A stretch of DNA of 64,000 bases from Acidimicrobiaceae bacterium (GCA_003133685.1 PKYQ01000023.1:20075-84074); one strand, 5' to 3'; shown: positions 37,615-59,399, counted from the first letter of the stretch. Translations and numbers: made by a program. Notes: a model not told the origin generated them from the sequence alone.

Positions 37615-37661
37615 GCACCCCCAACGGGATTCGAACCCGTGCCGCCACCTTGAAAGGGTGG
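37615..37661 (-). repeat. att core: 47-bp copy of the tRNA-Glu 3' half
   Basis: Identical to 48566-48612 and 59326-59372. Confidence 0.96.
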
Positions 37662-37943
37662 GTGAATTCAAATCTGCACGACGGTGAAACCACTGATCAA
37701 CAGCAATATCCAATGACGTTTATTTCTGCTTAGGGGGCCTTCGGGCATACTTCGGGCATAAGCCAAGACTGCCTCCTTCAACAGGTGCGTGCGATTCAAT
37801 GCTGACGAGGTCTTAGTTCTACGAACATCGGATCGGAGTCGTGTCAATTCGTACGCCCAACGAGGGCGCCAGCCACTTCCAGAATTGCTATCGACAGTTT
37901 CCGATAGTCGTTGTACCGTTGAGCACAAAGCGGGAGATTGGTG

Positions 37944-39014
37944 ATGCGCGCTCGCCGAATCACTTGTAGGGTCGCCGTCCTGACGGTCGCCGCGATATCG
38001 GCCCTCAACCTCTTCGCGGTTGCTTCGACCGATGCGGGCACCGCTACGACACCCCCGAATTCGACAGCACTCTTTTCCGTGAGTCGCAGTCTCACCTTGG
38101 CCACAGATGGCGCCGGCCCCTTCATCGTGGGAGCGGGGAACGACTCTATATTCGTGGACGGCACGTTTGACCAATTCCACCACCAAACCGATACCGATGA
38201 CCTCATCCGAATCAATCTGAGTACCTGGCGCATCAGCGCCGCAGCAAGATACCCCAACGAAACCAGCGTCGCATTTGGTGACGGCGCGCTCTGGTGGGCA
38301 ACAGGCCAAGACGCGTTCGATATACCTGCACCGGATAGCGGGCGAGTTCTGTTCAAGATTGATCCGACGAACTTGAGTAAACAAACGGCATTCGTCCTGC
38401 CAGATCGAACGCTCCTCGTGACCGTTGCCAGAACGTCTTTATGGGTCGCGACACCATCCATGCTCATCAGACTCGACCCCGTATCCGGGCAGATTCTGGT
38501 CAAGGTTCCGTCGAGTTTCTCGCCAATCGCCATGTCATCTTCCGAACAAGGTAAGTACCTTGACGTTCTCGGGTCGAGGGATTCGAAGGAGTACTTGACC
38601 ACCTACGATGCAGTATCGGGACGAAGGATGATGCGACGCTTAATCCCGGGCGCCAGCGGCGGGCCACTCGCTACGACCACGCGGGGAGTTTGGATCAATA
38701 CCGCGAACGTCAAAGGTCAGTCCACCACTGCTCGCTACTACGAAGGTGATCGACTTCTTCCCTCTACGACGCGAGGTGGTTACCCGCCCGACATTTCGCT
38801 GTTCTCCGGGGTCGGCGTGATCTGGTTGGTCGATTCCTGGGGTCTGAAGTCGACCGAGTGTCTTGCCCCGTCAACTGGACACGTCCAGTCTCGGGGTGGT
38901 CCACTTGGGGTCTACGGCTCTTTCGTGGCGTACGCGGGTCGCACGTTCGTACTGTTCGATCGTGGTCTCACGGACTACTTTGCTCGCGTCATACCTACGA
39001 AGAGTTGTAGCTGA
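37944..39014 (+). CDS. Secreted beta-propeller-like protein
   Basis: Signal peptide; repeated LIR.D/N...G...W blades. Confidence 0.75.
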   Translation: MRARRITCRVAVLTVAAISALNLFAVASTDAGTATTPPNSTALFSVSRSLTLATDGAGPFIVGAGNDSIFVDGTFDQFHHQTDTDDLIRINLSTWRISAAARYPNETSVAFGDGALWWATGQDAFDIPAPDSGRVLFKIDPTNLSKQTAFVLPDRTLLVTVARTSLWVATPSMLIRLDPVSGQILVKVPSSFSPIAMSSSEQGKYLDVLGSRDSKEYLTTYDAVSGRRMMRRLIPGASGGPLATTTRGVWINTANVKGQSTTARYYEGDRLLPSTTRGGYPPDISLFSGVGVIWLVDSWGLKSTECLAPSTGHVQSRGGPLGVYGSFVAYAGRTFVLFDRGLTDYFARVIPTKSCS

Positions 39015-39089
39015 ATTCCGACGTTCCTCGTATAGACGTCGCGACGCGACAAGACGACGCGATATCTGAAATCATCGCAGTGATTGTGG

Positions 39090-39115
39090 TGTCGGAGGCC
39101 CGACGTAACAGTTCT
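39090..39115 (+). repeat. Junction motif copy b
   Basis: TGTCGGAGGCCCGACGTAACAGTTCT(GCAG). Confidence 0.9.
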
Positions 39116-39472
39116 GCAGTCTTTCACTGGCGTATAGGTTCGTGCACACCTGATCATTGAAATCGGCCACAACGTAGTGCGGAAAGGTCATCTTGGCGCG
39201 AGACCACTGGTCCAAGAACGTCAACTAGGTTCAGAAACGTGAATCGCGGCTCGCGAACTTATTCAGGTCCGCTCTCTCGTAAAGAGCGAATCTTGGATCG
39301 ACTTCGATACCGATTCTTTCCGCCCAAACACCCGTTCCTGAATCCATTTCAACAGATCATCTGGCGCGGGCAACGTCTCGTAAGTGGCGACAACCGACAT
39401 CGGAGAGCCAAGGTTCGCTAGGACGGGCGAGGGTCATATAACTTTTGACCATCACACACGGAGAATCGACGT

Positions 39473-40615
39473 ATGAACTTCACTCGTAAGTTCGTGACCG
39501 CCAGTGCACTGTTTGCGCTCGTCACGGGTCTGTCATTCGCTCCCTTGCTGACCGCGTCATCCGCCACGGCACCGTTCAAACACCCAACCGCTATCGCACT
39601 TGACCACGATGGTCACCTGTGGGTCTCCAATCAGGACTACTTCGGTGTTACCGAGATCGAGGCCAGTACTGGGCAAGTGATTCGCGTCATTAACGCCAAG
39701 GCCGATGGCTTCATCGATCCGTACGGTATTTCCGTGTCGGGCCAGCACGTATGGGTCGTGAGCGGCGGTGTCGAATACGGCAATGGCACCAGCCATGTCG
39801 GCACGGTGACGGAACTCGACGCGACAACCGGCGCCCTGATACGAACCGTCAATCTCAAGAAGAACGGCGTGACGGGTCTCTCCGCTGTCAGCGCCGACAA
39901 CCAGCACGTGTGGGTCACCGCAGACGGCGGGGGAAGAGTCGTTGAACTGTCGAATGCGACCGGTCGCGTCGTGCACGTCTATCGAGGTCGCCTTAATCAT
40001 GTCGAGCCCGATGGCGTTGCCTCGAACGGCAGCGATGTCTGGGTTGTAGGCCCAGAAGTTGGAAATGGCGTGGTGGAACGCAGCGCCGTCACCGGACGGA
40101 AGTTGCGGACCTTGACGCCGACCCATCCCGAAGCGTCGCCAGGTGAGAAATACAAGTTTCCGGTGTACCTCTCGCCCAATTGTGTGACGGTCGATGCGCG
40201 CTATGTATGGACGGGTAACGGAGGGTCCTTGAGCTACAAGCTCCTAGGTGGTTCAGTCACGCAAATTGACGCCGCCACAGACAAAATCGTTCGCACCGTG
40301 GGCAGTAGCGCCGATGGCTTCTCGGGCACGATCCAGAGTGTTGATTCGGACGGCACGCACGTGTGGGTTGTCAACGGCTCCGTCTCATACCGAGGGCACC
40401 GTCGTGGTGACTCGGTCACTGAGTTGAATGCAACGAATGGTTCGCTGGTGCGAGTCATTCAGTTGCACGATGGCACCTACGCCGACCCCGTGGGCGTGGT
40501 CTCGAACGGCGTCGACGTGTGGGTCACCGACACCGGTGGTGGAACAGACGGCATTGGCAGCGTCATAGAACTCAATGCCGATAACGGCGCCGTGGTGCGA
40601 ACGATTGCCGGATAA
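39473..40615 (+). CDS. Secreted YncE/Vgb-like repeat beta-propeller
   Basis: Signal peptide; about 7 repeats of HVWV...VTELDATTG..IR. Confidence 0.85.
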   Translation: MNFTRKFVTASALFALVTGLSFAPLLTASSATAPFKHPTAIALDHDGHLWVSNQDYFGVTEIEASTGQVIRVINAKADGFIDPYGISVSGQHVWVVSGGVEYGNGTSHVGTVTELDATTGALIRTVNLKKNGVTGLSAVSADNQHVWVTADGGGRVVELSNATGRVVHVYRGRLNHVEPDGVASNGSDVWVVGPEVGNGVVERSAVTGRKLRTLTPTHPEASPGEKYKFPVYLSPNCVTVDARYVWTGNGGSLSYKLLGGSVTQIDAATDKIVRTVGSSADGFSGTIQSVDSDGTHVWVVNGSVSYRGHRRGDSVTELNATNGSLVRVIQLHDGTYADPVGVVSNGVDVWVTDTGGGTDGIGSVIELNADNGAVVRTIAG

Positions 40616-40627
40616 GTCAGGACAACT

Positions 40628-40833
40628 TTGGTCGGCCATGATTTAAGGCTCCATGACATGCGCCATACAGGTCTGACGCTGGCTGCAGCAACAGGAGCGA
40701 CGACAGCTGAATTGATGCACCGGGCGGGCCACGCTTCTGCCCCGCTTCCCTGCGGTATCAGCGTGCATCGAGAAATCGTGACCGGCGTCTTTCAGACGCC
40801 TTGGAGGACATGATCATCTTGCCTGAGGTTTAG
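40628..40833 (+). pseudogene. Tyrosine integrase 3' remnant, frameshifted
   Basis: DLRLHDMRHTGLTLAAATGATTAELMHRAGHAS, then in the shifted frame LRYQRASRNRDRRLSDALE. Paralog of 55536-56624. Confidence 0.9.
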
Positions 40834-40985
40834 AAAGTCTCAATCAGTAGAAATCGACCTTCAGGAGTGATCCGTTGGTCGTTGTGGTGCGCGTTTCGTG
40901 AACAATATTGACGTTCTTGTGTCCGCGCGGCTTATCTCGTCACTTTGAAGGAGGATGGAGAGCACGACGCACTGAGGAGAACACA

Positions 40986-41660
40986 ATGATGCCCATGCAA
41001 AGACGGCACTCATGGCCACGTCTCTCTCGCACTCTTCTTCCGGCTGTGACAATGGCGGTGCTCCTCGGCCTAGGTAGTCCCGTCGGCGCTTCCTCCGCCT
41101 CTTCTTCCTCGGTGGCCCTTCGCATCGCGGACTATGCGGTGGCAACTGCGACACACGACAACCCCGCCCACGTTGTCACGGCGGCCGATCTCAGCAATGC
41201 CGCCGGCATCACCGCTGTGAATAACACCAACCTTTTCCTCCTGATCAACGTGGGTGACGTGTTCGGGTTTTCGCGACTCGTTCTGTTCTTTCAAGAGAAA
41301 CCATTCGTCGACATCTGTCTCAACCTCCCTGACACTGTCGGCGGCACACCAAAGATCATTCCGTGCCCGCGCCAGGCTCGGGGGCTTTGGGATACTCACG
41401 GCGGCGCTCTTGCTGTCAGCAATCGGGCCATCGCTGCAGCCGCGGCGACCGGACACGCCGTGTCAGGTGCCGACGTTGTTGCAGCTGCGAAGGTTTATCA
41501 CTTGACACTTCGCCGCAAGCCAATTTTCCTCGCGGGACAAGGTGGCAAGGTGGAGTTCACGACGCCGGTTGAAATGGGACTAAACACGAAGTTCACGGTG
41601 GACACCTGCGTCCAACTGCCAAAGACCGCCTACGGCATACCCATCTGGGTGCCTTGCTGA
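40986..41660 (+). CDS. Secreted protein with two internal repeats, each ending in a Cys pair
   Basis: Signal peptide; VDICLNLP...PKIIPC and VDTCVQLP...PIWVPC. Confidence 0.75.
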   Translation: MMPMQRRHSWPRLSRTLLPAVTMAVLLGLGSPVGASSASSSSVALRIADYAVATATHDNPAHVVTAADLSNAAGITAVNNTNLFLLINVGDVFGFSRLVLFFQEKPFVDICLNLPDTVGGTPKIIPCPRQARGLWDTHGGALAVSNRAIAAAAATGHAVSGADVVAAAKVYHLTLRRKPIFLAGQGGKVEFTTPVEMGLNTKFTVDTCVQLPKTAYGIPIWVPC

Positions 41661-41662
41661 GA

Positions 41663-41980
41663 TCAGGAGCCTGAAACCTTCACAGACAAGCAGAGGTGGG
41701 TGCTCGTGTCGGTCACACCATGAATATGTACCGGCTCGAGTGGCTGTCTTGGCGACAGCGAGGTCTCTGGAGCGCTGATCTCGCTGTGACTGGTCAATAA
41801 AAGGGCTCGCGAAGGTGCTGGTGAAACGGAACTGTGTCCTTCAATAACTCCATCGAACTGCACCGCCCTTGCAATCAACGCACCCCAAAGTGCGGGCGAA
41901 GAGTTTTGACTTAGCTGTCGGTGAGGTCCTTCGTCGGAAGTCTCGGGTCTCTTTCCTGCACGAGGTTGAAGAAGTGTCAC
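41663..41980 (-). pseudogene. 3'-truncated DUF5519-like paralog
   Basis: Aligns with the first ~100 aa of 14647-15108, then stops after HLCLSVK at the stop of the convergent gene. Confidence 0.8.
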
Positions 41981-42020
41981 GAACGCAAACTACTTAACGC
42001 CGCAGTATCAAACTTCAAGG

Positions 42021-42046
42021 TGTCGGTGGCCCGACGTAAAAGATCG
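42021..42046 (+). repeat. Junction motif copy c
   Basis: TGTCGGTGGCCCGACGTAAAAGATCG. Confidence 0.85.
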
Positions 42047-42109
42047 ATGTAGAGATCGACAACGGACGCATCGTTGATTTCGGCGTGAATTGCCCGCGAC
42101 ATGCAGGCG

Positions 42110-43330
42110 TCAAACTGAGACGACTTGCCAGTGACCCCCAGCGTCGCTCGTATGAAACAGTGCAGAGTGAGTCCGATTTGACTCACTCTGCACGATTGCG
42201 AAGCCGGTTGAACGACTTGCAAACACAACCTGGGAGACAGAGCGGTTGAGGACGACTTTCCAATTTTTCCCCCAATTCGTGCTGCGAATTAGCTGAAGGC
42301 GCGAATTCGTTGCCCGTTGGAGGAGAATTGTCCCAGGTACGGGCGCGGCCGGTAGTCCAGGCACGGCGTAGTAACCCCTTTGATAGGAACTTGACAGTTC
42401 TCGAAGTGGTTTGAACGTCGCCCCAGCGTCATAGGAAATGAAGAGCCACGAAGCGCTGTTGTTCCAATCGGGCGGCACGGTAGAAGCCGGCGGGATTACA
42501 AAGCCAGCGCTTTGGCCCACAGCGAGTAGAACCTTGCTTGTCACCGCCGTTATCGGACTAAAGCTCGCACCGAAATCCTCGAAAGAGGGACCGCTCCACG
42601 CTCTCCATGAGCCGTCATTCGACAGTCGTAAACTCGCGGTGAATCCGCGATCGTTCCCAGCAACAAGCCACCCACTGGAACCGATGAAACTGAATTGACC
42701 TTCCAATTCGCTACCTCCCGCGGGCACCAACATTGGTGCATTCGAATCCTTTGTCCATTGGTCCGCGTTTGAATGAGTAGCAAGAACGTAGGCATGACCG
42801 TTTTCATAAGATCCACCGAAGAGGTACGTCCATGCCCCATGCGTCGCCATCTGGATCACCCCGGAAGTGATTGAGAGCGGGCCAAGCCGAATTTGACGCC
42901 ACGTCTTGCCACCGTCATGGGTTGACCACAGACGACTGACCCAGTTTGGATTGGTCGTGTTCGGTGTAACAGGCGCGGGGACCGTTCCATAGATCCAGCC
43001 GTTTTGCGCGTTGGCGAAGTGGACGTTGATCGTCGAATACGAACTGCTGAAAGTACCCCACGAAACGAGGTGGAAGTCTTTGTTCATCTGGCCCGGCGTA
43101 TGAACAACATTCCACGACGAAGCCGCGTCAATGGTGCTTCGCAGGGCAGCGCACGTTCTCCCGCCGCAGTCATAGAGCGAGAGCACGTAGCCAAGGTGGG
43201 AAGACGGGAACGATAAGGACATGGGGTCCAGTTGAAGTGAAGTCGCCTCCGCCAACCCTGGAGTGAAACTCAACGAAAACATGACGACAATGCCGACTAA
43301 TAGTCGCCACATTCTCAATCCCAGAATCAT
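42110..43330 (-). CDS. Secreted BNR/Asp-box beta-propeller (406 aa)
   Basis: STHDGGKTW, SYDAGATF, HTSDAGGHW. Close paralog of 53897-55117. Confidence 0.87.
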   Translation of the reverse strand: MILGLRMWRLLVGIVVMFSLSFTPGLAEATSLQLDPMSLSFPSSHLGYVLSLYDCGGRTCAALRSTIDAASSWNVVHTPGQMNKDFHLVSWGTFSSSYSTINVHFANAQNGWIYGTVPAPVTPNTTNPNWVSRLWSTHDGGKTWRQIRLGPLSITSGVIQMATHGAWTYLFGGSYENGHAYVLATHSNADQWTKDSNAPMLVPAGGSELEGQFSFIGSSGWLVAGNDRGFTASLRLSNDGSWRAWSGPSFEDFGASFSPITAVTSKVLLAVGQSAGFVIPPASTVPPDWNNSASWLFISYDAGATFKPLRELSSSYQRGYYAVPGLPAAPVPGTILLQRATNSRLQLIRSTNWGKNWKVVLNRSVSQVVFASRSTGFAIVQSESNRTHSALFHTSDAGGHWQVVSV

Positions 43331-43441
43331 TCAAACTCCCTCGACGTGCTTGGTTTACCACGAAGCGGAATCGAACGACCGTCGCGCCCGATGGTTGAGG
43401 TCTCTTACTTGTCGGATTGAATCAAGGTTGCGAATCTGCGA

Positions 43442-43467
43442 TGTCGGGGGCCCGACGTAACAGTTCT
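43442..43467 (+). repeat. Junction motif copy d
   Basis: TGTCGGGGGCCCGACGTAACAGTTCT. Confidence 0.9.
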
Positions 43468-43732
43468 AATGGGTCTGGACGGCGCCACTTTTTTGAGTGA
43501 TGCTGTCTCCGAGCCACTGGCCGGGAGCATTGTCTGCAACCCGAGCGTTCAGCTCTAGTGCAAGAGCGTGCCCCAGTCGGTCGGTGAGGTTGACGGGTAT
43601 GGCTGAAGGGGTGTCGCGCCATGAGCACTGATCCATTAGGTCGCCACCGTCTCCTCGGGGCTAGTCCGCTTAGGACTTCAGGCTGGCGGCTGCAACTGTG
43701 CTTGCTGCACGCTGAATGATACGTTCAGTCCC

Positions 43733-44791
43733 ATGCAGAGATTCCTGGTCAAAACTTGGTTGGTGGCAGGGATGCTAGTGGCCAGCAGCACTCTCTTACC
43801 TGGCGTGTCATCGGCGTCTAAATCTACTTCTCGGGGTGCGACAGTTGCGCTCAAGACGCCCGCGGCCTTGGCCGTGTCATCCAAAGGCGTGCTCTACGTG
43901 GTTGACGCGAGCCGAGACCAGATCGTGCGGCGATTGTCAAGCGGTCGGTTCCAGGTGGTAGCGGGAGATGGACGTCGCGGTTTCTCCGGTGATGGCCACT
44001 TGGCGATTGACGCCGAAATCTCGATCAACCAACGGAGCGGTCTGGCGGTAGCGGTAAACGGAACTGTCTACTTCGCTGACGAGGGAAACGGTCGTGTTCG
44101 CGAGATACTGCCCAATGGCGACATTGAAACGGTCGCAGGTGGCGGAAGCGAGACTCCTGGCACGATATCCATTCCTGCGTTGCGCGCCAGGTTCGGAGCC
44201 CTTGATCAGTTGAACGGCTTGGCCATGAGTCCAGGAGGTGAGTTGTACATCGGTGCTAACGGCGTGTACCGATTGGTGAGCGGGGTGCTCCACTGGGTTG
44301 TCGGCACTGATGCAACTGGTCTCAACAAGGGATTCAAGGGTTATGGATCAAGTCCCGTCTTCCAGAAGGACTTCGACCCGGCGTACACCTTGGTCTTCGA
44401 CGGCAAAGGGGACTTGCTCGTTGGAGGTGGAAATACGTGGAGCCTCTACGAAAGGACCGTCGGAGGAGCATTTCGCTTCATCCAGGAAGACCGTGCTCAG
44501 GGCGGGTACTACGCAGCGATGGCCGCAGCGCCTGATGGCAACGTGGTATTGGCCGGAGGAGCGCTCGGCCTGGCATGGTTCCATCCTTCGGGAGTGATCA
44601 CGGCGATTCCTGCTTCTGAACTGTCAACGTTGCTCCCGCCACCGAGTCACTTCACCGTCGGTGAGAGTGTCGCCGTGGCCCCTAATGGTGCGGTTTATCT
44701 AGATGCTGACGCCAACAACGGCTTCACCAACGTGAGTGCGATTGTTCAAGTCACCTCTGCGGGACACGCAGTGCTGGTTTGGAAGTCCTGA
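43733..44791 (+). CDS. Secreted NHL-repeat protein
   Basis: Signal peptide; P.ALAV...LYVVD, VAGDG..GFSGDG, GTVYFADEGNGRVR. Confidence 0.85.
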   Translation: MQRFLVKTWLVAGMLVASSTLLPGVSSASKSTSRGATVALKTPAALAVSSKGVLYVVDASRDQIVRRLSSGRFQVVAGDGRRGFSGDGHLAIDAEISINQRSGLAVAVNGTVYFADEGNGRVREILPNGDIETVAGGGSETPGTISIPALRARFGALDQLNGLAMSPGGELYIGANGVYRLVSGVLHWVVGTDATGLNKGFKGYGSSPVFQKDFDPAYTLVFDGKGDLLVGGGNTWSLYERTVGGAFRFIQEDRAQGGYYAAMAAAPDGNVVLAGGALGLAWFHPSGVITAIPASELSTLLPPPSHFTVGESVAVAPNGAVYLDADANNGFTNVSAIVQVTSAGHAVLVWKS

Positions 44792-44874
44792 TGCAGTTCA
44801 GAGTTCGCCGGGACTCGCAAACTTGTCAGAGAATATCGTGCGACTGAAAGACGAGTCGATCGAGTCTCAATGGG

Positions 44875-44900
44875 TGTCGGTGGCCCGACGACCCAGTTCT
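44875..44900 (+). repeat. Junction motif copy e
   Basis: TGTCGGTGGCCCGACGACCCAGTTCT(GCAG). Confidence 0.88.
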
Positions 44901-45048
44901 GCAGCCCCGCATTGGCGACTCACGCACACGAAATAGTCACCGAATATGACGCCAGCGATTCATCTTCCAATTACTCACCTTCAAGGCGGAGGTCATCTAC
45001 GTGACCATGATCTCCGACGATAACTCGACGGTCAAGGTTCGAATGATG

Positions 45049-45067
45049 ATACTATTCAAATTAGTTC
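45049..45067. promoter_or_regulatory. Putative YtrA-type operator directly before gntR
   Basis: ATACTA-TTCAAAT-TAGTTC; near-identical to 52553-52571. Confidence 0.6.
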
Positions 45068-45068
45068 T

Positions 45069-45416
45069 ATGAATTTCTCTGAAGTTGACCGAAGCGAGCC
45101 AATCGCACTCCACCATCAGGTTGCCGCCGATATTCGTCGCGCGATTGCTGACGGTGAAGCGGCCCAAGGCGAGCGTCTACCGCCGGCGATCGACCTTGCC
45201 GCTGTCCTTGGGGTGAACAAGAACACGGTCATCCGAGCGCTGCACATCCTGCGTGAGGAGGGAGTCCTTGACTTCACGAGGGGGCGAGGCATTCGAGTGG
45301 TTGGCACCCCTGCGCGAAGTGCTCTTCTCACGAAGATGAACGAGCTCGTCTCTTTGGCGCGCGAGCAGGGATATCGCAAAGACGAGTTGGCTTCAATGAT
45401 TCTTTCGGTCCAGTAG
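45069..45416 (+). CDS. GntR family regulator, short YtrA-like type
   Basis: GERLPP..DLA..LGVNKNTVIRAL..LR.EG...TRGRG; 115 aa. Confidence 0.92.
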   Translation: MNFSEVDRSEPIALHHQVAADIRRAIADGEAAQGERLPPAIDLAAVLGVNKNTVIRALHILREEGVLDFTRGRGIRVVGTPARSALLTKMNELVSLAREQGYRKDELASMILSVQ

Positions 45417-45428
45417 CGAGGTTTCGAC

Positions 45429-50211: not shown

Positions 50212-50264
50212 ACAAATCCAGAACCGCATCCCTCCTCTAAATCAAGAGACTGAGTGAGGGTACT

Positions 50265-50290: not shown

Positions 50291-50328
50291 GCTACTAGCC
50301 ACTGGAGACTTCGGAGTTCGGCACCGGT

Positions 50329-51250: not shown

Positions 51251-51276
51251 TGTCGGGGGCCCGACACAATAGTTCA
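51251..51276 (+). repeat. Junction motif copy g
   Basis: TGTCGGGGGCCCGACACAATAGTTCA(GCAA). Confidence 0.88.
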
Positions 51277-51325
51277 GCAATCCTTGACGGGCGGCTCTCC
51301 CCCGCGCGTTGGACTGGCGAAGCGA

Positions 51326-51679
51326 TTAGGGACCGTCGATACCGAACACGTTGCCGAAGGGATCCACGAACTGGGCGATAATCCTTTCGGGCGACAGAGT
51401 CAATGGTCCGCGATGTTTGGTTGCTCCGAGAACTATCGCCTCATTCATCGAAGACTGGAAATCCGATGACGCAAAATACACAACCGGAGTTCCTCCCTGC
51501 GGGTTGCGCCCGTCGTCAGAGGGATGGAATCCATACTCCGTCTTGCTGGCGACGAACCAACAGAACCCGTTCTCTTCGTTGACTAACTGGGCTGGTACAT
51601 TAAGCAACTCCGACCACCAGTGAGCCACTTCGCTGGGTTTCTTGCAAAAGAGCATCACAGTTTTGATTTCGCCATTCAT
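51326..51679 (-). CDS. VOC/glyoxalase family protein
   Basis: WWSELL, PVVYF, LGAT...GP, FVDPFGNVFGI. ATG 51679. Confidence 0.85.
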   Translation of the reverse strand: MNGEIKTVMLFCKKPSEVAHWWSELLNVPAQLVNEENGFCWFVASKTEYGFHPSDDGRNPQGGTPVVYFASSDFQSSMNEAIVLGATKHRGPLTLSPERIIAQFVDPFGNVFGIDGP

Positions 51680-51747
51680 GCTTCCGACACTACGGTTCAA
51701 TTGGTCAGGCCGACGTCGCAGAAGTTCCACCCTCGAAGAGTGCGGCG

Positions 51748-52524
51748 TCAGCGGACCGACTGTCCTGTACGAACCCACTCATGACGAGTGTCATTCAAGA
51801 CGTAGGTGGCGTAACTTGCCTTTGGCAGGTCTCCGTCAGGGAACGGACGTATCCGAATTCCAATGCTGACGCTGACAGTCTCGTTACTGATTATCCAGTC
51901 ACTAGCGGGGTTCAAGTACTGGTACCAATGGCGTCCTCTGTCGGTCGAGACGTCGATAACGGCATTGCTGACCATCACTATGGCTGATGGTCCATCTGGA
52001 ATTACTTTGTTCACGAAGTAGATACCTCCGCCAACCCAGTCAGTCGCGAGCATCGGGCCGGCCGCCCTCCAGTGGGCTCCGCCGTCGATGCTGCGAACGG
52101 GAAACAGTCCTCCGTCGCCGTTCACTCGCCACACGCCCCACTCGACGCTCGCAATCGGCGACTTGATTTCGATCCACCGCAATTGCGTAGCGGGAAGAAT
52201 CGTCCCCCAAGGTAGAGCACGAACTTGAACGTCAATCCCACCCTCGTACATTCCACGTCGCATCTTGAGCGTCGCAGGGTAGGGCGATGTCTTAGCGGCT
52301 GCACCAGTCTTCGGTTCGGTGTTGACCGGTGTGTTCACGTGCTTTGGCGGACCATTGTTGCCGGCTGCGAGGAAACCCGTCACCGTTGCCACCATTGCAG
52401 CGATTACCACAGCGAGGTCGCGTTGCCGGCGACGGCGAGAAGCCGCTCGAGCTTCTCTAATGAGGAGTTCCGCGGGCTCCGTCGTCTCACCGATTTCGTG
52501 TTGACGGGTCGGAGTGATGATCAT
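51748..52524 (-). CDS. Membrane-anchored exported protein with Asp-boxes
   Basis: ATG 52524 with GAGAAAGG RBS; ELLIREARAASRRRRQR plus TM; RSIDGGAHW, VSTDRGRHW. Confidence 0.8.
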   Translation of the reverse strand: MIITPTRQHEIGETTEPAELLIREARAASRRRRQRDLAVVIAAMVATVTGFLAAGNNGPPKHVNTPVNTEPKTGAAAKTSPYPATLKMRRGMYEGGIDVQVRALPWGTILPATQLRWIEIKSPIASVEWGVWRVNGDGGLFPVRSIDGGAHWRAAGPMLATDWVGGGIYFVNKVIPDGPSAIVMVSNAVIDVSTDRGRHWYQYLNPASDWIISNETVSVSIGIRIRPFPDGDLPKASYATYVLNDTRHEWVRTGQSVR

Positions 52525-52552
52525 GGGCCTGCCTTTCTCAGCACGTCTTATG

Positions 52553-52571
52553 GTACTATTCATACTAGTTC
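52553..52571. promoter_or_regulatory. Putative YtrA-type operator in the 48-nt divergent gap
   Basis: GTACTA-TTCATAC-TAGTTC (6-7-6 inverted repeat, one mismatch). Confidence 0.65.
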
Positions 52572-52572
52572 T

Positions 52573-52920
52573 ATGCAAACACTCAAAGTCAACAAAGATG
52601 AACCGGTCGCATTGCACGATCAAGTGGCCGCCGAGATTCGTCGAGCCATCGCTGACGGCGAGGCTGCTCAAGGCGAACGTCTTCCCCCGGCAGTAGACCT
52701 GGCGACGGTACTCGGCGTGAACAAGAACACGGTGATTCGTGCTTTGCATATTCTGCGCGACGAGGGACTGCTCGACTTCACGAGAGGGCGTGGCATTCGA
52801 GTAGTTGGATCTCCCCAACGCGGAGCGGTGATGACCCGCATCGATGAACTGCTCGTCTTTGCCCGGACACAAGGGTATCGCCACGATGAAGTTGTTGCCC
52901 TGATCCAAGCTCGGAGTTGA
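52573..52920 (+). CDS. GntR family regulator (YtrA-like), paralog of 45069
   Basis: True start ATG 52573, 115 aa; the HTH is nearly identical to 45069-45416. Confidence 0.92.
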   Translation: MQTLKVNKDEPVALHDQVAAEIRRAIADGEAAQGERLPPAVDLATVLGVNKNTVIRALHILRDEGLLDFTRGRGIRVVGSPQRGAVMTRIDELLVFARTQGYRHDEVVALIQARS

Positions 52921-52984
52921 AGATGCCTGTGCATGTACAGTCAGGTTTGCGCTGGGACAAGAAGATTCGAGAGTTAGGGGATCC

Positions 52985-53827
52985 ATGACCCTTTCGCCAA
53001 CTCGTAGCAATCCCACCGGAGAGACCCCCGACTCTGCAGAGCTGCTCATCAAAGAGGCTCGGCGTGCCAAGCGTCTGCGTCGATTGCGAAATATTGCAAT
53101 TGTGTTTGTCGCATTGGTGGTTGTCACTGTGATCTCCGTCATTCAGACACTGAACAAAACTCCTTCAAAGCCGAAGCCCGAGACGGCGGTTGTGAAGTTC
53201 GTCGATTCGATGAAGCACGCCAACGGCACTCGATTCGTTGCGACCTATCGCGTTCATCATTACGACTGGATGGACAATGGCGTCATCACGATGGCCCAAA
53301 TTCCGAGCCCACCTGGCACCAAAGCCACAACCAACAGCGACGGCTATTCGGGTAGTGGCAAATACGCCTACATCTATCGAAACGCAGACGGTCGTATCTC
53401 GCAGTGGATCAAAATCGGAACCAACGTGAGCGGGTGTGCGATGCCGGCCAAGGGCCCAAGCCGTCAGATGCAGTGTTCGAGACTCAGTCCGTATCTCCCT
53501 TCAAATGGCTTTGCCTATGCAGATGTTGGGTTCGTGCCGACGTACGTGATGCAATCAATTCTCACGTCGAACGGGATCGGCAAATCCCTGAAATTGACGA
53601 CGAGGGTCTCCACTCAATTCGGTCGCCTGACGTGTCTGACGCAAACCTTCCCTTCGACGATCCAAACCACATGCATAGACCGATCGGGCTACGTCGTACT
53701 TTGGAGGTACCACAACTTCCACTATTCGAGTTCGGCGACCCTTACCGCTTTCAATCGTCATCCGACTGCCAGCGATTTCAGAACATTAATTAAGCCGACG
53801 AAACCACTGGTCTTGCCAGGATTGTAA
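52985..53827 (+). CDS. Membrane-anchored exported protein
   Basis: ELLIKEARRAKRLRRLR plus TM, then a beta-rich Cys-containing domain. Confidence 0.8.
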   Translation: MTLSPTRSNPTGETPDSAELLIKEARRAKRLRRLRNIAIVFVALVVVTVISVIQTLNKTPSKPKPETAVVKFVDSMKHANGTRFVATYRVHHYDWMDNGVITMAQIPSPPGTKATTNSDGYSGSGKYAYIYRNADGRISQWIKIGTNVSGCAMPAKGPSRQMQCSRLSPYLPSNGFAYADVGFVPTYVMQSILTSNGIGKSLKLTTRVSTQFGRLTCLTQTFPSTIQTTCIDRSGYVVLWRYHNFHYSSSATLTAFNRHPTASDFRTLIKPTKPLVLPGL

Positions 53828-53842
53828 ATCTGATCGCGCGGA

Positions 53843-53868
53843 AGTCAGGGACCCGAAGCCACAGAACG
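53843..53868 (+). repeat. Junction motif copy i (degenerate, 17/26)
   Basis: AGTCAGGGACCCGAAGCCACAGAACG, in a 69-nt intergenic gap. Confidence 0.5.
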
Positions 53869-53896
53869 CATACTGGAGACAGTTAAAGGAGATTCA

Positions 53897-55117
53897 GTGA
53901 GAAAGGATTTGAGAACAACTCAACTGATCGTCAGTTTGTTCCTCGTACTTTCGCTGATTCCAATATCAAGCGTGGCGGGTGCGTCCTCCGCTCAACTGGA
54001 CCCGATTTCCCTGTCATTTCCGAACCCCCAAAAGGGCTACGTCCTGTCGCTCTATGACTGCGCCGCCAAAACTTGCGCCACCCTGCGCGGTACCGTCGAC
54101 GGAGGCTCCTCGTGGAAGGCTGTGCCAATTCCGAGTGAGCTGGGTCGAAGACTCCAGTTGGAATCGTGGGGCACGTACGGCACCACGTACGCGACGCTCA
54201 CCGTTCACTTCGCTGACGCGAAGAACGGTTGGATTTACGGCACCGTTCCCGCCCCCGTAACGCCGACTACGGCCAGTCCGAATTCGGTGAATCGTGTTTG
54301 GTCAACCCATGACGGTGGCAAAAAGTGGCGACAAGTTCGCCTTGATCCACTCGCGCTCACGGCTGGCGTCGTCCAGATGGCCACGCACGAAGCGTGGACG
54401 TACCTTTTCGGAGGATCCAATACTGGTGGCGCCTACCTGCTCGGCACACGTTCGAACGTGGACCAGTGGTCGAGGAAATCGAGCGCGGAAATGAGCATGC
54501 CCGCAGGAGGCACGCAATTGGTAGGTTCCTTCACGTTTGCGGGCGACAACGGTTGGTTTGTGGCCGGGAACGATCGTAGTTTCACCGCCAGCGCGCGGCT
54601 CTTGACTAACGGCACTTGGGGCGCGTGGAACGGACCCTCGTTTGAAGATTTCGGAGCGAGCTATACCCCGATTTGCGCCGTGACCGACAACGTCCTGCTC
54701 GCCGAGGGCGAGAGCGCCGAGATCGTGTACCCACCGGCCTCTTCGGTGCCTTCGGGATGGAATGACGGAGCGTCATGGCTCTTCATTTCCTACGACGCCG
54801 GATCGACATTCAAGCCCTTTCGCAAACTATCGAGTTCCTATCAAGGGAGTTATTACTCCACCGTGCCGGGTCTACCAGCGGTGCCGGGACCGGGGACGAT
54901 TCTCCTTCAGCAGGCGTCAAATTCGAGTTACCACCTGGTGCGCAGTACGAACTGGGGACGGACCTGGAACGTCGTTTTCGACGGCCCTATCTCTCAAGTT
55001 CTTTTCACCAGTCGTACAACCGGCTTTGCGATCGCAAAGGAAAGGTCGAGTCATACGACTTACTCGGTCTATCGAACGATCGATGCTGGAAGCCACTGGA
55101 ACAGAGTCAGTCAGTAG
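53897..55117 (+). CDS. Secreted BNR/Asp-box beta-propeller (406 aa)
   Basis: Signal peptide; STHDGGKKW, RSTNWGRTW, RTIDAGSHW. Paralog of 42110-43330. Confidence 0.87.
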   Translation: MRKDLRTTQLIVSLFLVLSLIPISSVAGASSAQLDPISLSFPNPQKGYVLSLYDCAAKTCATLRGTVDGGSSWKAVPIPSELGRRLQLESWGTYGTTYATLTVHFADAKNGWIYGTVPAPVTPTTASPNSVNRVWSTHDGGKKWRQVRLDPLALTAGVVQMATHEAWTYLFGGSNTGGAYLLGTRSNVDQWSRKSSAEMSMPAGGTQLVGSFTFAGDNGWFVAGNDRSFTASARLLTNGTWGAWNGPSFEDFGASYTPICAVTDNVLLAEGESAEIVYPPASSVPSGWNDGASWLFISYDAGSTFKPFRKLSSSYQGSYYSTVPGLPAVPGPGTILLQQASNSSYHLVRSTNWGRTWNVVFDGPISQVLFTSRTTGFAIAKERSSHTTYSVYRTIDAGSHWNRVSQ

Positions 55118-55535
55118 ATCGCATCACCGACGCAGTCCCCTTGTTTGACGTATATGTGAGTTCATCACGCTCATCTTCTTGAGCCATAGGTCCTCTTAAT
55201 TCCTACTGCCCGAGGACGGCGTGCGCGAAGCGCCAAGCCGTCCGTTCGGGCTACCTGGGTGATCATCAAAATCAATTAATACTTCGCAAATTCTGAAGAT
55301 ATTTGCATGCGCTCTTAAAGTTTCTGTTCGAAAACGCGGAAATGGGTGTGGCTGTCTTATAGAGGGCGAAAATCTCGTTCCTCTGTAAGGAGCACTATGA
55401 GACTGCCCATTTGCATCGGAGACCAGTTTCGATGATCGGTGACGACCCTCGGACTTATCAATTCAAGATCTCTGGACGACTACGTGATGATAGCGACCGT
55501 TGTCACTGGCTAATTGGAAGAGGAACGAGAAATTG

Positions 55536-56624
55536 ATGACTCGACGTCACTTTGGATCTGTCAGAAAGAGACCTTCGGGTCGCTGGCAGACCCTTTTCTG
55601 GCAAGACGAACGCGTTCAGTCGGCGGGCACGTTCGCGACAAAAGCTGACGCGCAGGCATTTCTATCCGCACTGGAAACGGATCTTCGAAGAGGTAAATGG
55701 ATTGATCCTCGAGGAGGTGAAGTAACGCTATGCGACTACGCCAATGCTTGGTTGATACAGAGAACTGAATTGGCGGAACGAACTGTGGAGTTGTACCGCC
55801 ACGTCCTTAGCAATCACATACTTATTGCGCTGGGCACTTCAACCGTGACCGGTCTCAGTCCAACCAAAATTCGCTCTTGGCACGCAAACATCGCGAAAGA
55901 TCATCCCGCGACTGCGTCGAAGGCATACCGTCTGTTGTCGTCAATTATGCGAACCGCTATCATCGACGGAATTATTCTGAGTTCGCCTTGCAAGGTTGAG
56001 GGCGCCGGCACAGAACACGCCGCCGAAAGGCCGATCGCTTCCGCCGAGGAAGTTGAACTTCTGTCACGGGCGATGCCAGATCATCTCCGAATCGTTGTAC
56101 CACTTGCCACATGGTGCCAGTTGCGCCGAGGTGAGATTCTCGGACTGCGAAGAATGGATGTTGACCTGAAGCAACACGTGATTCACATTCTTCAAAGCCG
56201 CACGTTTGGAATGGATGGCAAGCAGATAATGAAACTGCCAAAAACGGATGCAGGTCGGCGAACAATCTTCGTCCCCCGACCAGTGATGAAGTCCCTCGTT
56301 CGACATGTTGAGATATTCGCTGGGCCAGAACCAGAAGCCCTGGTAGTCGTTGGAAGGGGAGGTGCAAATCTCTCAAGGGATGCACTCCAAGGGTCGTGGG
56401 AAAGGGCGAGGCTGGCAATCGGTGGACCTGACTTACGACTTCACGACATGCGTCACACGGGTTTGACGTTGGCGGCGGCAACGGGAGCAACTACGGCGGA
56501 ATTGATGCATCGAGCGGGTCACGCCTCTGCGCCCGCGGCCCTCCGGTATCAGCACGCGACCAGAGATCGTGACCAGCGCCTATCAGACGCCCTTGAGGGC
56601 ATGATCCACGTCCCAGAGGATTAG
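55536..56624 (+). CDS. int: Tyrosine integrase with N-terminal arm-binding domain
   Basis: RRHFGSVRKRPSGRWQ N-terminus; catalytic set intact: LRRGE (R), PKT (K), HDMR, GH, YQH. Confidence 0.96.
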   Translation: MTRRHFGSVRKRPSGRWQTLFWQDERVQSAGTFATKADAQAFLSALETDLRRGKWIDPRGGEVTLCDYANAWLIQRTELAERTVELYRHVLSNHILIALGTSTVTGLSPTKIRSWHANIAKDHPATASKAYRLLSSIMRTAIIDGIILSSPCKVEGAGTEHAAERPIASAEEVELLSRAMPDHLRIVVPLATWCQLRRGEILGLRRMDVDLKQHVIHILQSRTFGMDGKQIMKLPKTDAGRRTIFVPRPVMKSLVRHVEIFAGPEPEALVVVGRGGANLSRDALQGSWERARLAIGGPDLRLHDMRHTGLTLAAATGATTAELMHRAGHASAPAALRYQHATRDRDQRLSDALEGMIHVPED

Positions 56625-56691: not shown

Positions 56692-57768
56692 TCAAGGTGC
56701 TTCGGTTCCGAACCTTGCCATTCGCCGCGCCGCCTCAATCTCTTGAATGCGCGCGTGCGCTGCGACACAAGCAGGGCATGCATCTCTGCCGTCGGGGTCC
56801 CTCACGGGATGGAACGTTCGCCCACAAAGCGCGCGGACGGTGCAGCCAACAACTACCGCTTCGGTGAGCCCTTCCTTCATAACGATGTGACACCACACAC
56901 CAGATCCATCTGTCAAGTCGGGTGGATCAACGGCCATTGCGGGTGCGCCACGAATGACATAGTCGGCGCAAACAGCCTCAATCCATCTCTCCGGCACCAC
57001 CACCCACCAACTTGGCACCTGCGACGAATTCATATCGGGAACGACGTCCCAATCGGAGCGCGATATGCCGGGCATAGCGTCCTGAACTTCGAGGAGAACA
57101 TCTTCAAACTTTGGCCCCGTGTAATTGATTATCTCGATCGAAATCGTTAAGTCGTTTGGATAATCAGGGCCGTTATCGGAGATGTCAACCTGCAACATTG
57201 CGGTGGAACGGAACTCCTGTCTCGATTCGTCGAGGTCAGTTGGCAGTTCCACAGCGACGGTGCGTCGGTCACGAAAGGCGGTGACCACGGCTTCGATGAC
57301 CCGTTCCCGAAGGCTCGCCAGGCGACGTTGCTCAAACTCGAGCAGTAACTCGAGTCGCAGACGCTTCTGGTCTGATTCGGTCGGCAAAAATATTTCTGAG
57401 CCGTTCACGCACAGTCGTTCAAATGACTTATAGAAGTCATCGCGATCTCCATCTCTTCGGAATCCTGCAGCACACAGCCAAAGCACGCCATTGGCATCGA
57501 TGTGAGCGGCCCCTCGAAACTGTTCTATCTTGACCCGATACCACAAGCGATCCCGAACGGCCGAGATTTTCAGCGCCATGAGTTCGTCGGCGGACATCGA
57601 AAGTAGTCGGTTCGCTTTTGCGATCAGTGGGTGTTCAATCTGGCTTAAGGGAATCGAACCAAGATCGGCTAAGTTCCCAGAACTCAAAGCGGACCTCTGA
57701 TTCGCATCTTTGAGGTCCGCTTTGAGTTCGTCAAGTAGACACCTAATAGTGGGACGCGCCGGATTCAA
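56692..57768 (-). CDS. Putative toxin: RelE-like N-terminal region fused to C-terminal DUF3039-like Zn-binding domain
   Basis: WYRVKIEQFRGAAHI...WLCAAG resembles RelE/ParE strands (tentative). C-terminal HIV.KE.LTEAVV.G..VRALCG...P.RDP....CPAC resembles DUF3039. Confidence 0.6.
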   Translation of the reverse strand: MNPARPTIRCLLDELKADLKDANQRSALSSGNLADLGSIPLSQIEHPLIAKANRLLSMSADELMALKISAVRDRLWYRVKIEQFRGAAHIDANGVLWLCAAGFRRDGDRDDFYKSFERLCVNGSEIFLPTESDQKRLRLELLLEFEQRRLASLRERVIEAVVTAFRDRRTVAVELPTDLDESRQEFRSTAMLQVDISDNGPDYPNDLTISIEIINYTGPKFEDVLLEVQDAMPGISRSDWDVVPDMNSSQVPSWWVVVPERWIEAVCADYVIRGAPAMAVDPPDLTDGSGVWCHIVMKEGLTEAVVVGCTVRALCGRTFHPVRDPDGRDACPACVAAHARIQEIEAARRMARFGTEAP

Positions 57769-57816: not shown

Positions 57817-58266
57817 TCAGCCGAATCCAAGCTCGGCAGCCTCCTCAGAGGAGATTCCGGAGAGTGAAGCGAGTTTCTCATTGCGCCTGTTTTCGTAAGT
57901 AGCAGCTGCCTCGACACGCTTCACTTTCAAATCCTCACGCAACCTGATATAAGCGACCACGTCGCTAGCGGCTATTCTCCTATCCCTTCCGGTGAAGTGA
58001 AATGGAATTCGACCTTCGTCAAGAAGCTTGTTCAAAAACGGACGCGATACGCCCACGAGTTCCGCGGCTTGAGTGCTGGTCAAATCCTTGGTTGTGTCCA
58101 GAATCGCTGCGCTTCCTCCCCGCGCAATAACTCTGAGCATGTAAATCATTGGTTCTTTTACAGCCTGTGGCAATGATCCTTCGTTCTCGAGACGCTTAAG
58201 AGTCTCTTCAACTTTTTCTCGGTCTTCCTTGCTCAATAGATTTGAGTCAACTGTCGAGATTGTCAC
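57817..58266 (-). CDS. Excisionase-family HTH (HTH_17) protein, putative antitoxin or directionality factor
   Basis: LTSTQAAELVGVSRPFLNKLLDEGRIPF..TGRDRRI. GTG 58266 with AAGGAGAAGG RBS. Confidence 0.85.
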   Translation of the reverse strand: MTISTVDSNLLSKEDREKVEETLKRLENEGSLPQAVKEPMIYMLRVIARGGSAAILDTTKDLTSTQAAELVGVSRPFLNKLLDEGRIPFHFTGRDRRIAASDVVAYIRLREDLKVKRVEAAATYENRRNEKLASLSGISSEEAAELGFG

Positions 58267-58459
58267 ACCTTCTCCTTTTCTGACGAGCAACTCCATTCAA
58301 ACTGCATACTCGAACAGATGAAACAAGTAAAGCACATGAAATAGATGAAAGCCAATCGCAGAAGCTTCGAATATTCGTAGAATTTTTAGGGCTCTTAAAT
58401 ACCTGGTCAGAGGCAACACGCAGTACCTCAAATGGGTATCTCGGCGAACTTGCCTCGTG

Positions 58460-58828
58460 TTAGTCGAGGAGCTGTGCTGCCAAGCAGAATGGGTGACCCG
58501 CCGGGTCCAAAAGGATTCGCCAATGCTCCGGATTAGTTTGCTCTGTCGCGACCCGAGCACCCAAACGCACCGCGTCAGTTTGCGCTGCGTCAAGGTCGTC
58601 GACTTTCAAGTGCAGATGCATCTGTTTCGGCACGGTCGGGTCCGGCCAAGTGGGCGGCTTATAGTCCTGCACCTTGACGGCGACCACCCAGTCTCCGTCC
58701 ACCTTGACAGCGTGGAACTCGTCGTTGCGATGTGCGACTACGCCACCGAGGAGCGCCGCCCAGAAGTCAGCGAGGACGGAAGGGTCAGAGCAGTCCAGCG
58801 CCGTTAAACCCAGTCGCGCCGTCGCCAT
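58460..58828 (-). CDS. VOC/glyoxalase family protein
   Basis: ALDCSDP..LADFW...LG, P.WP....QMHL.L.VDDL, DPAGHPFCL. Confidence 0.9.
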   Translation of the reverse strand: MATARLGLTALDCSDPSVLADFWAALLGGVVAHRNDEFHAVKVDGDWVVAVKVQDYKPPTWPDPTVPKQMHLHLKVDDLDAAQTDAVRLGARVATEQTNPEHWRILLDPAGHPFCLAAQLLD

Positions 58829-58838
58829 TCCTCAGAGC

Positions 58839-59048
58839 CTATGCGACACCCACGAGACGGGCGTTGGCCCCCACGGTCTGACGCTCATTCAGATGGCGAC
58901 CGCCTTCGTCGATGCCCCCGGCGCGGTCGATTACAGCGGCTCGATGTCCGCTTGAACTCAGACGGCTGACTATCGCGCCACCAATACCTCCACTTCCACC
59001 GGTCACGACTGCCACGCGGGTACCCGGGTCTAGGCGATTGGAACTCAT
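58839..59048 (-). pseudogene. SDR oxidoreductase N-terminal fragment
   Basis: VAVVTGGSGGIG Rossmann start, then loses similarity and stops at 69 aa. Confidence 0.6.
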
Positions 59049-59198
59049 GAGCTCGGCGCGAGACCGTGAATATTTGATCGCACTTCATCTCCTATCTTCA
59101 TATCCGCGTCGAGGATCCCGCACTCGCACAGCTCGCAGAGAATCGTGCCAGGGCACTGGACACCTCACTTTTAATTGCTCAGAGTCGGCGCACCATTT

Positions 59199-59228
59199 CG
59201 GGCATACTGCGGGCATATAACGGGCATG
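59199..59228 (+). repeat. Three arm-type direct repeats CGGGCAT(A/G), 11-bp period
   Basis: Copies at 59199, 59210 and 59221; same motif and spacing at all four element ends. Confidence 0.85.
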
Positions 59229-59326
59229 TAGCAGTGGTAAATGGTGGTTATTGGTGGTCACTGCTGGTCACTCGCGGTCACTCCCAAACCCTTGCAAATA
59301 AAGGGCTTTCGGTCGATTTTCCAGAG

Positions 59327-59399
59327 CACCCCCAACGGGATTCGAACCCGTGCCGCCACCTTGAAAGGGTGGTGTCCTAGGCCGCTAGACGATGGGGGC
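59327..59399 (-). tRNA. tRNA-Glu(TTC)
   Basis: GCCCCCA/TGGGGGT acceptor stem, CCACC-CTTTCAA-GGTGG anticodon arm, GGTTCGAATCC T-loop; 73 nt, no encoded CCA. Confidence 0.97.

Follow-up and report, generated by a model that had tools for sequence, protein, structure and literature searches.

The region analysed here lies at a tRNA-Glu(TTC) gene, in a 64,000-nucleotide stretch of DNA (the window; GCA_003133685.1, PKYQ01000023.1:20075-84074) from the metagenome-assembled genome (MAG) of an uncultured peat Acidimicrobiaceae bacterium. It very probably carries two related site-specific integrative islands in tandem array, placed one behind the other at the 3' half of this gene. The tRNA-proximal island is referred to as Y and the distal island as X; they correspond to A and B, respectively, in a first-pass annotation of the window, which had proposed tandem integration of two related elements at this tRNA. 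This proposal was borne out, as each element was found to be bounded by a core and an R arm at one end and by an L arm and a core at the other. Positions given without a contig name are counted from the first letter of the window.

Cores, attachment arms and the tRNA-Glu gene

Repeats were sought by repeat finding and by BLAST against the whole 2.5-Mb assembly. Both confirmed the three identical 47-bp cores described previously as running from the anticodon stem to the 3' end of the tRNA: the copies at 37615-37661, 48566-48612 and 59326-59372 were 100% identical. No further copy was detected by BLAST in the 2.5-Mb genome, and the sole near match was to tRNA-Glu(CTC) on contig C1 (41 bp at 92.7%). 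Starting at the tRNA-Glu 3' end, the core reaches as far as the 5' strand of the anticodon stem; its right end, CCACC-TTGAAAG-GGTGG, is the anticodon stem-loop. The plus-strand order is left flank, core 1, R arm-X-L arm, core 2, R arm-Y-L arm and core 3, the last being continuous with the 5' half of tRNA-Glu. The components of the array, with their attachment (att) arms, are as follows:

37615-37661, minus strand: core copy 1, where the intact part of the array ends distally; tRNA-like score 30.3 bits
37662-48565: element X, with both att arms and perfect cores, and with its integrase present as two 3' remnants only
37662-37800, plus strand: R arm of X, with a 27-bp block (37683-37709) and GGGCATA at 37743 and 37754
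48438-48565, plus strand: L arm of X, with two CGGGCATA repeats (48450, 48461), 11-bp-spaced GGTCAC or close variants, and an inverted repeat
48566-48612, minus strand: core copy 2, the X/Y junction; tRNA-like score 24.9 bits
48613-59325: element Y, with an intact tyrosine integrase, an excisionase-family gene and complete att arms
48613-48760, plus strand: R arm of Y, with the 27-bp block (48634-48660) with TGAAACCACTGATCAAC, and GGGCATA at 48694 and 48705 (82 bp past the core)
59187-59325, plus strand: L arm of Y, with three CGGGCATA repeats at 11-bp spacing (59200, 59211, 59222)
59326-59399, minus strand: genuine tRNA-Glu(TTC) (ARAGORN; Rfam 61.9 bits), whose 3' 47 bp (59326-59372) are core 3 and the tRNA-proximal junction of Y
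59431-59507, minus strand: tRNA-Pro(CGG) (ARAGORN; Rfam 68.1 bits)

Two tRNA-Glu genes were called by ARAGORN, both on the minus strand (37615-37688 and 59326-59399). With Rfam, for which the gathering score is 29, the stretches 37616-37685 and 48567-48636 reached only 30.3 and 24.9 bits, compared with 61.9 bits for the real gene. The only good tRNA-Glu is that at 59326-59399; 37615-37688 is a pseudo-tRNA, and both distal 'tRNAs' consist of the core plus a degenerate tRNA-like stretch of the R arm. The degenerate tRNA 5' half that persists in the R arms beside the core (37615-37688, 48566-48639) is enough for a false call by ARAGORN, and a spurious second tRNA-Glu(TTC) will probably be reported by annotation pipelines. 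The tRNA-Glu(TTC) gene is single in this genome, and its pairing with tRNA-Pro is a conserved chromosomal arrangement in every relative of the genus examined.

The 27-bp block noted earlier to the right of two cores was exact, with 0 matches expected by chance. The homologous arm reported to the left of two cores was also recovered, with 90.5% identity over 116 bp (48450-48565 and 59210-59325), or 93% over 163 bp with the core, and the R arms showed 80% identity over 186 bp, core included. In the L arm of Y, the CGGGCATA repeats are followed by four 11-bp-spaced copies of GGTCAC or a close variant, then by the inverted repeat AAACCCTTGCAAATAAAGGGCTTT, and then by TTTTCCAGA, which adjoins the core. 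Doublets of the form GGGCAT-N5-GGGCAT occur six times in the whole genome, and five of the six are in the four arms of X and Y. These arm doublets share one orientation and fixed distances to the core: in each R arm the doublet lies 82 bp past the core, and in the L arms it begins 115 bp before the core (126 bp for the extra third repeat of Y). The sixth doublet, at the start of a contig (C12:119-140), is a 22-bp exact match to the L arm of Y, and may be the edge of another family member that was broken by assembly.

The conservation of these motifs was examined in an alignment of 16 L-arm junctions from different MAGs and in an R-arm alignment of 10 elements. The L arm was conserved in 14 elements of other MAGs, with two to five copies of CGGGCATAnnn at an 11-bp phase, four GGTCAC or close-variant copies spaced by 11 bp, the inverted repeat AAACCCTTGnAAATAAAGGGTTT, and TTTCCAGA adjoining the core. 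In the R-arm alignment, CTGATCA (within the 27-bp block) and the columns of GGGCAT-N5-GGGCAT were invariant in all 10 elements, and the rest diverged. Altogether, the arm motifs and their spacing were kept in more than 15 elements of other MAGs despite the divergence around them. As GGGCAT doublets are also present between related integrases and tRNA-Gly(TCC), GGGCAT is read as a candidate arm-type site of this integrase group. The GGTCAC-type repeats might be a site for an accessory protein such as an excisionase.

From this anatomy, the attP of each element would consist of the L arm, the 47-bp core and the R arm. The integrase probably binds the inverted repeat of the anticodon stem (CCACC/GGTGG), with strands probably exchanged within the 7-nt anticodon loop, where the core ends on the right, and its N-terminal domain probably binds the 11-bp-phased GGGCAT repeats of both arms. 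Integration would restore the tRNA and leave a 47-bp partial copy at the far end.

Gene content of Y and X

Open reading frames (ORFs) were chosen by homology, because the island genes scored weakly in codon-usage gene calling. The cargo stretch of Y covers 48785-55117 and is followed by the integrase module:

48785-49399: extracytoplasmic function (ECF) sigma factor
49396-50211: membrane anti-sigma-like protein, 271 aa
51326-51778, minus strand: glyoxalase-like protein
52225-52920: GntR
52985-53827: membrane protein
53897-55117: BNR/sortilin-like propeller
55500-56624, plus strand: intact tyrosine integrase, probable start ATG at 55536
56692-57768, minus strand: 358-aa protein with a C-terminal DUF3039-type zinc-ribbon module (Pfam DUF3039, 4.3e-11)
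57817-58296, minus strand: excisionase-family helix-turn-helix (HTH) protein, 159 aa (Pfam HTH_17, 1.7e-10; phrog_66 excisionase)
58460-58828, minus strand: second glyoxalase gene

The integrase of Y reads toward the tRNA and matched Pfam Phage_integrase (1.1e-11), the central and SAM-like domains, and phrog_1 (7e-56). The catalytic R...HxxR...H...Y of tyrosine recombinases is present in Y, whereas X holds C-terminal remnants only. The corresponding motifs RRGE, HDMRH, GHAS and LRYQH were all found in the Y protein and were invariant in the 20-sequence alignment of the family. The excisionase-family protein scored 52.3 bits with the NCBIfam model TIGR01764 'excise' (cutoff 28.8), and the 358-aa DUF3039-type protein had no NCBIfam match. 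Y thus appears, as judged from its genes and arms, to have everything expected for autonomous integration and excision, and it may still be mobile today.

The closest relative of Y is element L035. The sigma factor and its 271-aa partner are 78% and 67% identical, respectively, to their counterparts at the same end of L035; this sigma/anti-sigma end and the integrase are common to both elements, and the module after the integrase differs. Between the integrase and the L arm, L035 encodes a DprA/SLOG-like protein, then a phosphoribosyltransferase (PRTase)-like protein, plus one unknown (L035:4978-7317), which is possibly a defence or conflict module.

The cargo stretch of X covers 37938-46712, and the genes of the element are:

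37938-39014: 358-aa protein, no family match
39473-40615: propeller-like protein, 380 aa
40639-40835, plus strand: integrase 3' remnant 1, ~65 codons, frameshifted by a 1-nt deletion
40908-41660: 250-aa protein
41663-41980, minus strand: 105-aa protein
42110-43330, minus strand: BNR propeller
43733-44791: NHL repeat protein
45069-45416: GntR
45429-46712: BNR-like protein, 427 aa
46734-47081, plus strand: integrase 3' remnant 2, in frame, 113 aa, equivalent to residues 262-373 of the Y integrase
47098-48348, minus strand: 416-aa exported all-beta protein with a signal peptide and Asp-box-like motifs

The content of X is characterised by several exported propeller-like proteins (BNR, NHL) and several proteins without a family match. 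Remnant 2 is 77% (nt) and 78.6% (aa) identical to the Y integrase and matched Pfam Phage_integrase on its C-terminal part only; the homology of both remnants to the Y integrase ends at the stop codon. Because the integrase survives as two 3' remnants only, X is predicted to be defective and non-autonomous, in the manner of a cis-mobilisable element (CIME). If mobile, X would need an integrase in trans, for example that of Y, and would move alone or together with Y. The presence of two integrase remnants in one element suggests that X is probably a fusion of two older elements, with loss of the att site between them. Preferential retention of integrase 3' ends was also considered, and no such bias is claimed, since fragments from the N-terminal and middle parts were seen in the genus as well.

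The arms, the integrase 3' end (78.6% aa), the BNR propeller (59.6% aa, inverted) and GntR (72% aa) are all that X and Y have in common, which agrees with the earlier statement that the two elements share almost no cargo order. The cargo of the elements consists of accessory genes for exported or envelope proteins and regulators, with no recognisable transfer machinery, and 'cargo-shuttling' may be a suitable description of the family.

The commonest arrangement in the clade is integrase, 416-aa gene and L arm; X, L036 and L041 were each confirmed to have it, and in L037 an ORF of matching length occupies this position. The 416-aa protein is 71% and 68% identical to the product of the same-position gene in L041 and L036, respectively. 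Its homologues fall into at least 85 clusters, none of them named and nearly all lacking a Pfam domain. The protein itself had no match in the PDB by sequence and none in Pfam, NCBIfam or PHROGs, and its AlphaFold2 model (mean pLDDT 46) was too poor for a fold search. The gene is not strictly element-borne, as more distant homologues (57-62% identity) were found near tRNA-Lys, in non-element contexts that have no integrase. The 105-aa ORF of X has a 75% aa paralogue at ~14806-15108, in a second patch of low G+C (13000-16000, G+C ~0.54), which suggests another island or cargo swapped between islands.

A motif of 26-31 nt with a 5-bp hairpin, GGTGTCGGnGGCCCGACGTrACAGtTCTGCA, was observed on the plus strand between island genes (39085-39115, 42016-42046, 43437-43467, 44870-44900 and 51246-51276, with a weak copy at 50264). 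The possibility that this 31-nt motif (GTCGGnGGCCCGAC...) is an island-specific recombination site was rejected because ~13 more copies cluster on other contigs (C16:133303-136380, where they flank a BNR paralogue; C27:51034-58143; C19, C21 and C11). It looks like a regulatory, transcript or 5' untranslated region element rather than a recombination site.

Integrase family, older layers and population data

A maximum-likelihood tree of the integrases was built from the alignment of 20 sequences. The tRNA-Glu integrases formed one clade with 100/100 support, apart from the tRNA-Gly-linked clades, and both the Y integrase and the larger X remnant belonged to it. Together with the common arm motifs, this result of the phylogeny that had been suggested as a check upholds the claim of one element family. 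The Y integrase was sister to that of L035 (85% identity), and the X remnant lay within the clade but was not sister to the Y integrase; X and Y were therefore acquired separately, and not by duplication.

The tRNA-Glu locus was also compared in related genomes, the other check suggested. All 16 integrase homologues on genome contigs (43-83% identity) had either tRNA-Glu(TTC)/tRNA-Pro, a 47-bp core or an L arm downstream, in the same convergent orientation. The related loci are from Acidimicrobiaceae MAGs of bog, palsa and Danish soil. Further tandem arrays whose distal cores are perfect were observed (G020, G006, palsa_509, L045, L049), and in palsa_509 two full integrases (L036 and L039) lie 28 kb apart; the distal cores were perfect in every one of the at least 8 arrays seen. 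Complete-looking members of the family measure only 5.8-10.7 kb. In the closest complete relative, G020, an 8.4-kb unit without integrase lies between two perfect cores, and integrase pseudogenes of the family are frequent in the genus. The cargo in relatives includes AbiEi/AbiEii, PadR with HAAS, an esterase, DprA/SLOG with PRTase, and major facilitator superfamily (MFS) and ATP-binding cassette (ABC) transporters.

Sister integrase clades (56-65% identity) were observed beside tRNA-Gly(TCC)/(CCC) at loci L023-L029 and L034, from relatives G004, G005, G006, G010, G013, G020 and G048, and GGGCAT arm repeats like those described here flank two of the tRNA-Gly(TCC) loci. Within the integrase group, tRNA targets have changed and the candidate arm-site motif has been kept. 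In the present genome, a 70-aa integrase C-terminal remnant (~71% identity) was observed ~35 bp past tRNA-Glu(CTC) (C1:116622-116942), with the catalytic Tyr reading Cys (ALRCQH); this locus is a second, decayed integration site.

The array extends to the left of 37615 as older, decayed layers:

36484-36646, plus strand: decayed L arm (three GGGCAC, decayed GGTCAC-type repeats), then a decayed core (GCACCCCACCGATG...)
31273-36599: layer Z, 5,327 bp, integrase-less (Pfam: MarR, alpha/beta hydrolase, epimerase, MarR, TetR, short-chain dehydrogenase/reductase (SDR))

A segment of ~1 kb with a DUF5671 gene lies between the decayed core and core 1. A joint 31272->36600 was present in five peat runs at ~7-40% of the local depth and drops exactly the 5,327 bp of Z, ending at the arm/core boundary; Z is thus present or absent as one unit in natural populations, and a minority of the genomes in these five runs lack it. 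In the relative G012, the TetR gene adjoins a perfect 47-bp core and the SDR gene is on the tRNA-Glu contig. A 1,460-bp MarR and NAD-epimerase module (33338-34797) was missing from a variant contig of run X7 (joint 33337->34798). It has an 84% nt paralogue at C13:75079-76405 and 84-85% copies in G011 and G007, and is a small mobile or recombining module without its own recombinase. The G+C content is low from ~30000 to 59400; with the decayed outer layers, this gives an island of ~29 kb overall, whose layers are more decayed with distance from the tRNA.

Twenty-two runs were analysed, all as Logan k=31 contigs; these end inside the 47-bp core, so that junction order, circles and empty sites are invisible in them. 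At least 72% of the sampled words of 47000-50000, the stretch around the X/Y junction, were present in 20 public peat metagenome runs. The depths of X and Y agreed within a few percent in 8 peat runs, from ~3x to 180x, and were 0.8-0.9 of the flank depth. As the two depths track each other at this level, X and Y are both single-copy in the same population, and are not alternatives. A diverged co-occurring strain, with contigs 95-99% identical to the left flank but with many differences, covered the left flank and lacked most of X and Y. At the core edges, the runs contained several distinct continuations into R arms and L arms. Short 'joints' at the core edges, with sides of 21-30 nt, were considered as excision products and rejected; they belong to other family members.

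The likeliest history would be that X arrived and decayed, and that Y then entered the regenerated tRNA, with older decayed layers further to the left. The view of the first-pass annotation that the proximal element is the newest fits the gradient of decay, from the intact Y through the remnants in X to the ruined att site at 36484-36646, but is not proven by it. Several points weigh against this account of the locus. Position in the array is no proof of arrival order, because all three cores are identical and any of them could be the target. The k=31 contigs break in the core, so that no excision product, circle or empty site could be observed there, and the X-Y link across core 2 rests on the MAG assembly alone. 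Neither a clearly empty site nor a conserved distal flank was found in the relatives, which leaves the outer boundary of the island undefined; the sequence to the left of 37615 had no synteny in at least 30 genomes of the genus. G024 was considered as an empty site, as it has no L arm beside tRNA-Glu, and was rejected since its flank maps to unrelated contigs of the present genome.

The equal depth of X and Y in every run, with no X-only or Y-only population, might also indicate a fixed and immobile island remnant, in which both elements are dead, the Y integrase has persisted fortuitously or serves some other function, and the cores and arms are perfect only because the elements arrived recently. 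The integrase pseudogenes widespread in the genus and the G020 unit between perfect cores without any integrase are in keeping with this explanation. However, the Y integrase is full length with all catalytic motifs, the excisionase-family gene is intact and the arm motifs are conserved across species. In addition, distal cores are perfect in at least 8 arrays and the older remnant here is heavily decayed, an either-perfect-or-ruined pattern that suggests turnover. A fixed remnant is possible, but doubtful.

Descent from a prophage, phage satellite or actinomycete integrative and conjugative element (AICE) stripped of its structural or transfer genes was judged very unlikely. It would account for the tRNA 3' half as target, the integrase with an excisionase-type HTH protein, and the actinobacterial host. 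Against it, no capsid, terminase, portal, primase, Rep, FtsK/TraB or relaxase was detected by Pfam in X, Y, L035, L036, L041 or the G020 unit, which is concordant with the earlier claim that phage and conjugation genes are lacking, and the complete-looking family members are also just 5.8-10.7 kb long. Selected proteins of X and Y were also searched with PHROGs and NCBIfam: the PHROGs matches were to integrase and excisionase-type HTH only, and no conjugation module or Rep was found in these searches or in the Pfam ORF scans. No primase, helicase or polymerase domains were found in the Pfam scans of the X and Y ORFs or in the NCBIfam scan. The integron-integrase model scored 20.9 bits against a cutoff of 265, and the units are bounded by tRNA cores with arms, and not by attC sites.

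An assembly chimera, with X and Y stemming from separate co-occurring strains or elements and linked in silico through the 47-bp core, is extremely unlikely. In its favour, the peat samples harbour many related elements that have this core, with varied arm continuations, and the Logan contigs cannot span the core. Against it, X, Y and the flanks co-vary across the 8 runs over a ~60-fold range at 0.8-0.9 of the flank and not at half depth, the 47-bp repeat is shorter than ordinary short reads, and tandem arrays of the same family are present in the single-contig genomes G020 and G006.

Significance and comparison with known systems

The tandem array of islands documents a well-defined small integrative-island family in an abundant, uncultured actinobacterial lineage of peat, with a clear attP layout of a 47-bp tRNA-Glu core, GGGCAT arm repeats and GGTCAC-type repeats. 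In this lineage, the main hot spot of variable genes appears to be the tRNA-Glu/tRNA-Pro locus. This is of use for the annotation of MAGs, for explaining contig breaks at the locus, and for tracing strain-level gene flow in peat, for which exported-protein, sigma-factor and defence genes are traceable cargo. The knowledge of how such islands work is unchanged by these results. The locus is an unambiguous though unremarkable example of islands accumulating at a tRNA hot spot.

Williams (2002) reportedly set out a sublocation scheme for tRNA-associated islands with crossover in the anticodon loop. The present elements resemble classical islands of this kind, with no fundamental difference: the block of identity covers the 3' part of the tRNA as far as the 5' strand of the anticodon stem, the tRNA is regenerated, and the integrase, with its arm-type repeats, follows the lambda/P4 style. 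The direct repeats equal the 3' part of the tRNA, an intact tRNA is present at one end, and the integrase clade is tied to the same target in other genomes (16/16 loci). This integrase clade, the GGGCAT/GGTCAC arm motif and the host lineage were not met in the literature searched.

AICEs such as pSAM2 and SLP1 are actinobacterial elements of ~10 kb that target the tRNA 3' part and carry Int and Xis, Rep and an FtsK-like TraB. The actinobacterial host, integration in the 3' part of a tRNA, Int with Xis and a size of ~10 kb are shared by the present elements; unlike AICEs, neither Rep nor an FtsK-like TraB was detected in X or Y.

The accretion model comprises three steps, namely integration, decay to a CIME, and entry of a newcomer into the att site that holds the gene end (PMC5704250). 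The present array, with Y proximal and the defective X distal, matches this model, and a newest element next to the tRNA would fit it. Tandem accretion of CIMEs with integrative elements has been described for the integrative and conjugative elements (ICEs) ICESt1 and ICESt3 of Streptococcus thermophilus and for streptococcal integrative and mobilisable elements (IMEs) (reviewed in PMC5704250). X is similar to the CIMEs of that review in being a decayed element without integrase that keeps attL and attR with the same site specificity. It has lost its integrase (two remnants, one of them frameshifted), has no transfer genes, and has functional-looking attL and attR with perfect cores and all of the family arm motifs. 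The systems differ in that neither X nor Y has conjugation or mobilisation genes, so that Y is not an ICE or IME in the strict sense, and in the present host, an uncultured Acidimicrobiaceae bacterium. No conjugative or mobilisation module was found in X, Y or the relatives that would indicate an ICE or IME origin or mobilisation in cis by an adjacent ICE. X may thus be called CIME-like by analogy, and ICE ancestry is not claimed.

Tycheposons of Prochlorococcus are set apart by an integrase lineage of their own and by replication hallmark genes (primase/helicase) that they share (bioRxiv 10.1101/2020.12.28.424599). For them, transfer in vesicles or by transformation, with no need of phage or conjugation genes, has been proposed. 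No replication module was found in X or Y, and the present integrase points outward to the tRNA, 1.5-2.7 kb from the arm. By analogy, the tRNA-Glu locus of these streamlined peat Acidimicrobiaceae might act as a cassette platform. Integrase-less units with perfect 47-bp cores and complete arm sites, such as X and the 8.4-kb unit of G020, would then be kept as modules that can be mobilised in trans by any integrase of the clade, and would likewise pass from cell to cell in vesicles or by transformation, for instance, with neither phage nor conjugation genes; this is an unlikely extension of the tandem-array reading. Going by their description, tycheposons resemble the present elements: both are small, tRNA-targeting cargo elements with a tyrosine recombinase, associated with partial tRNAs and variable islands, and mostly without phage or conjugation genes. 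The missing transfer genes, the tRNA-anchored cargo islands and the small-genome environmental lineage would be the features that bring the two systems together.

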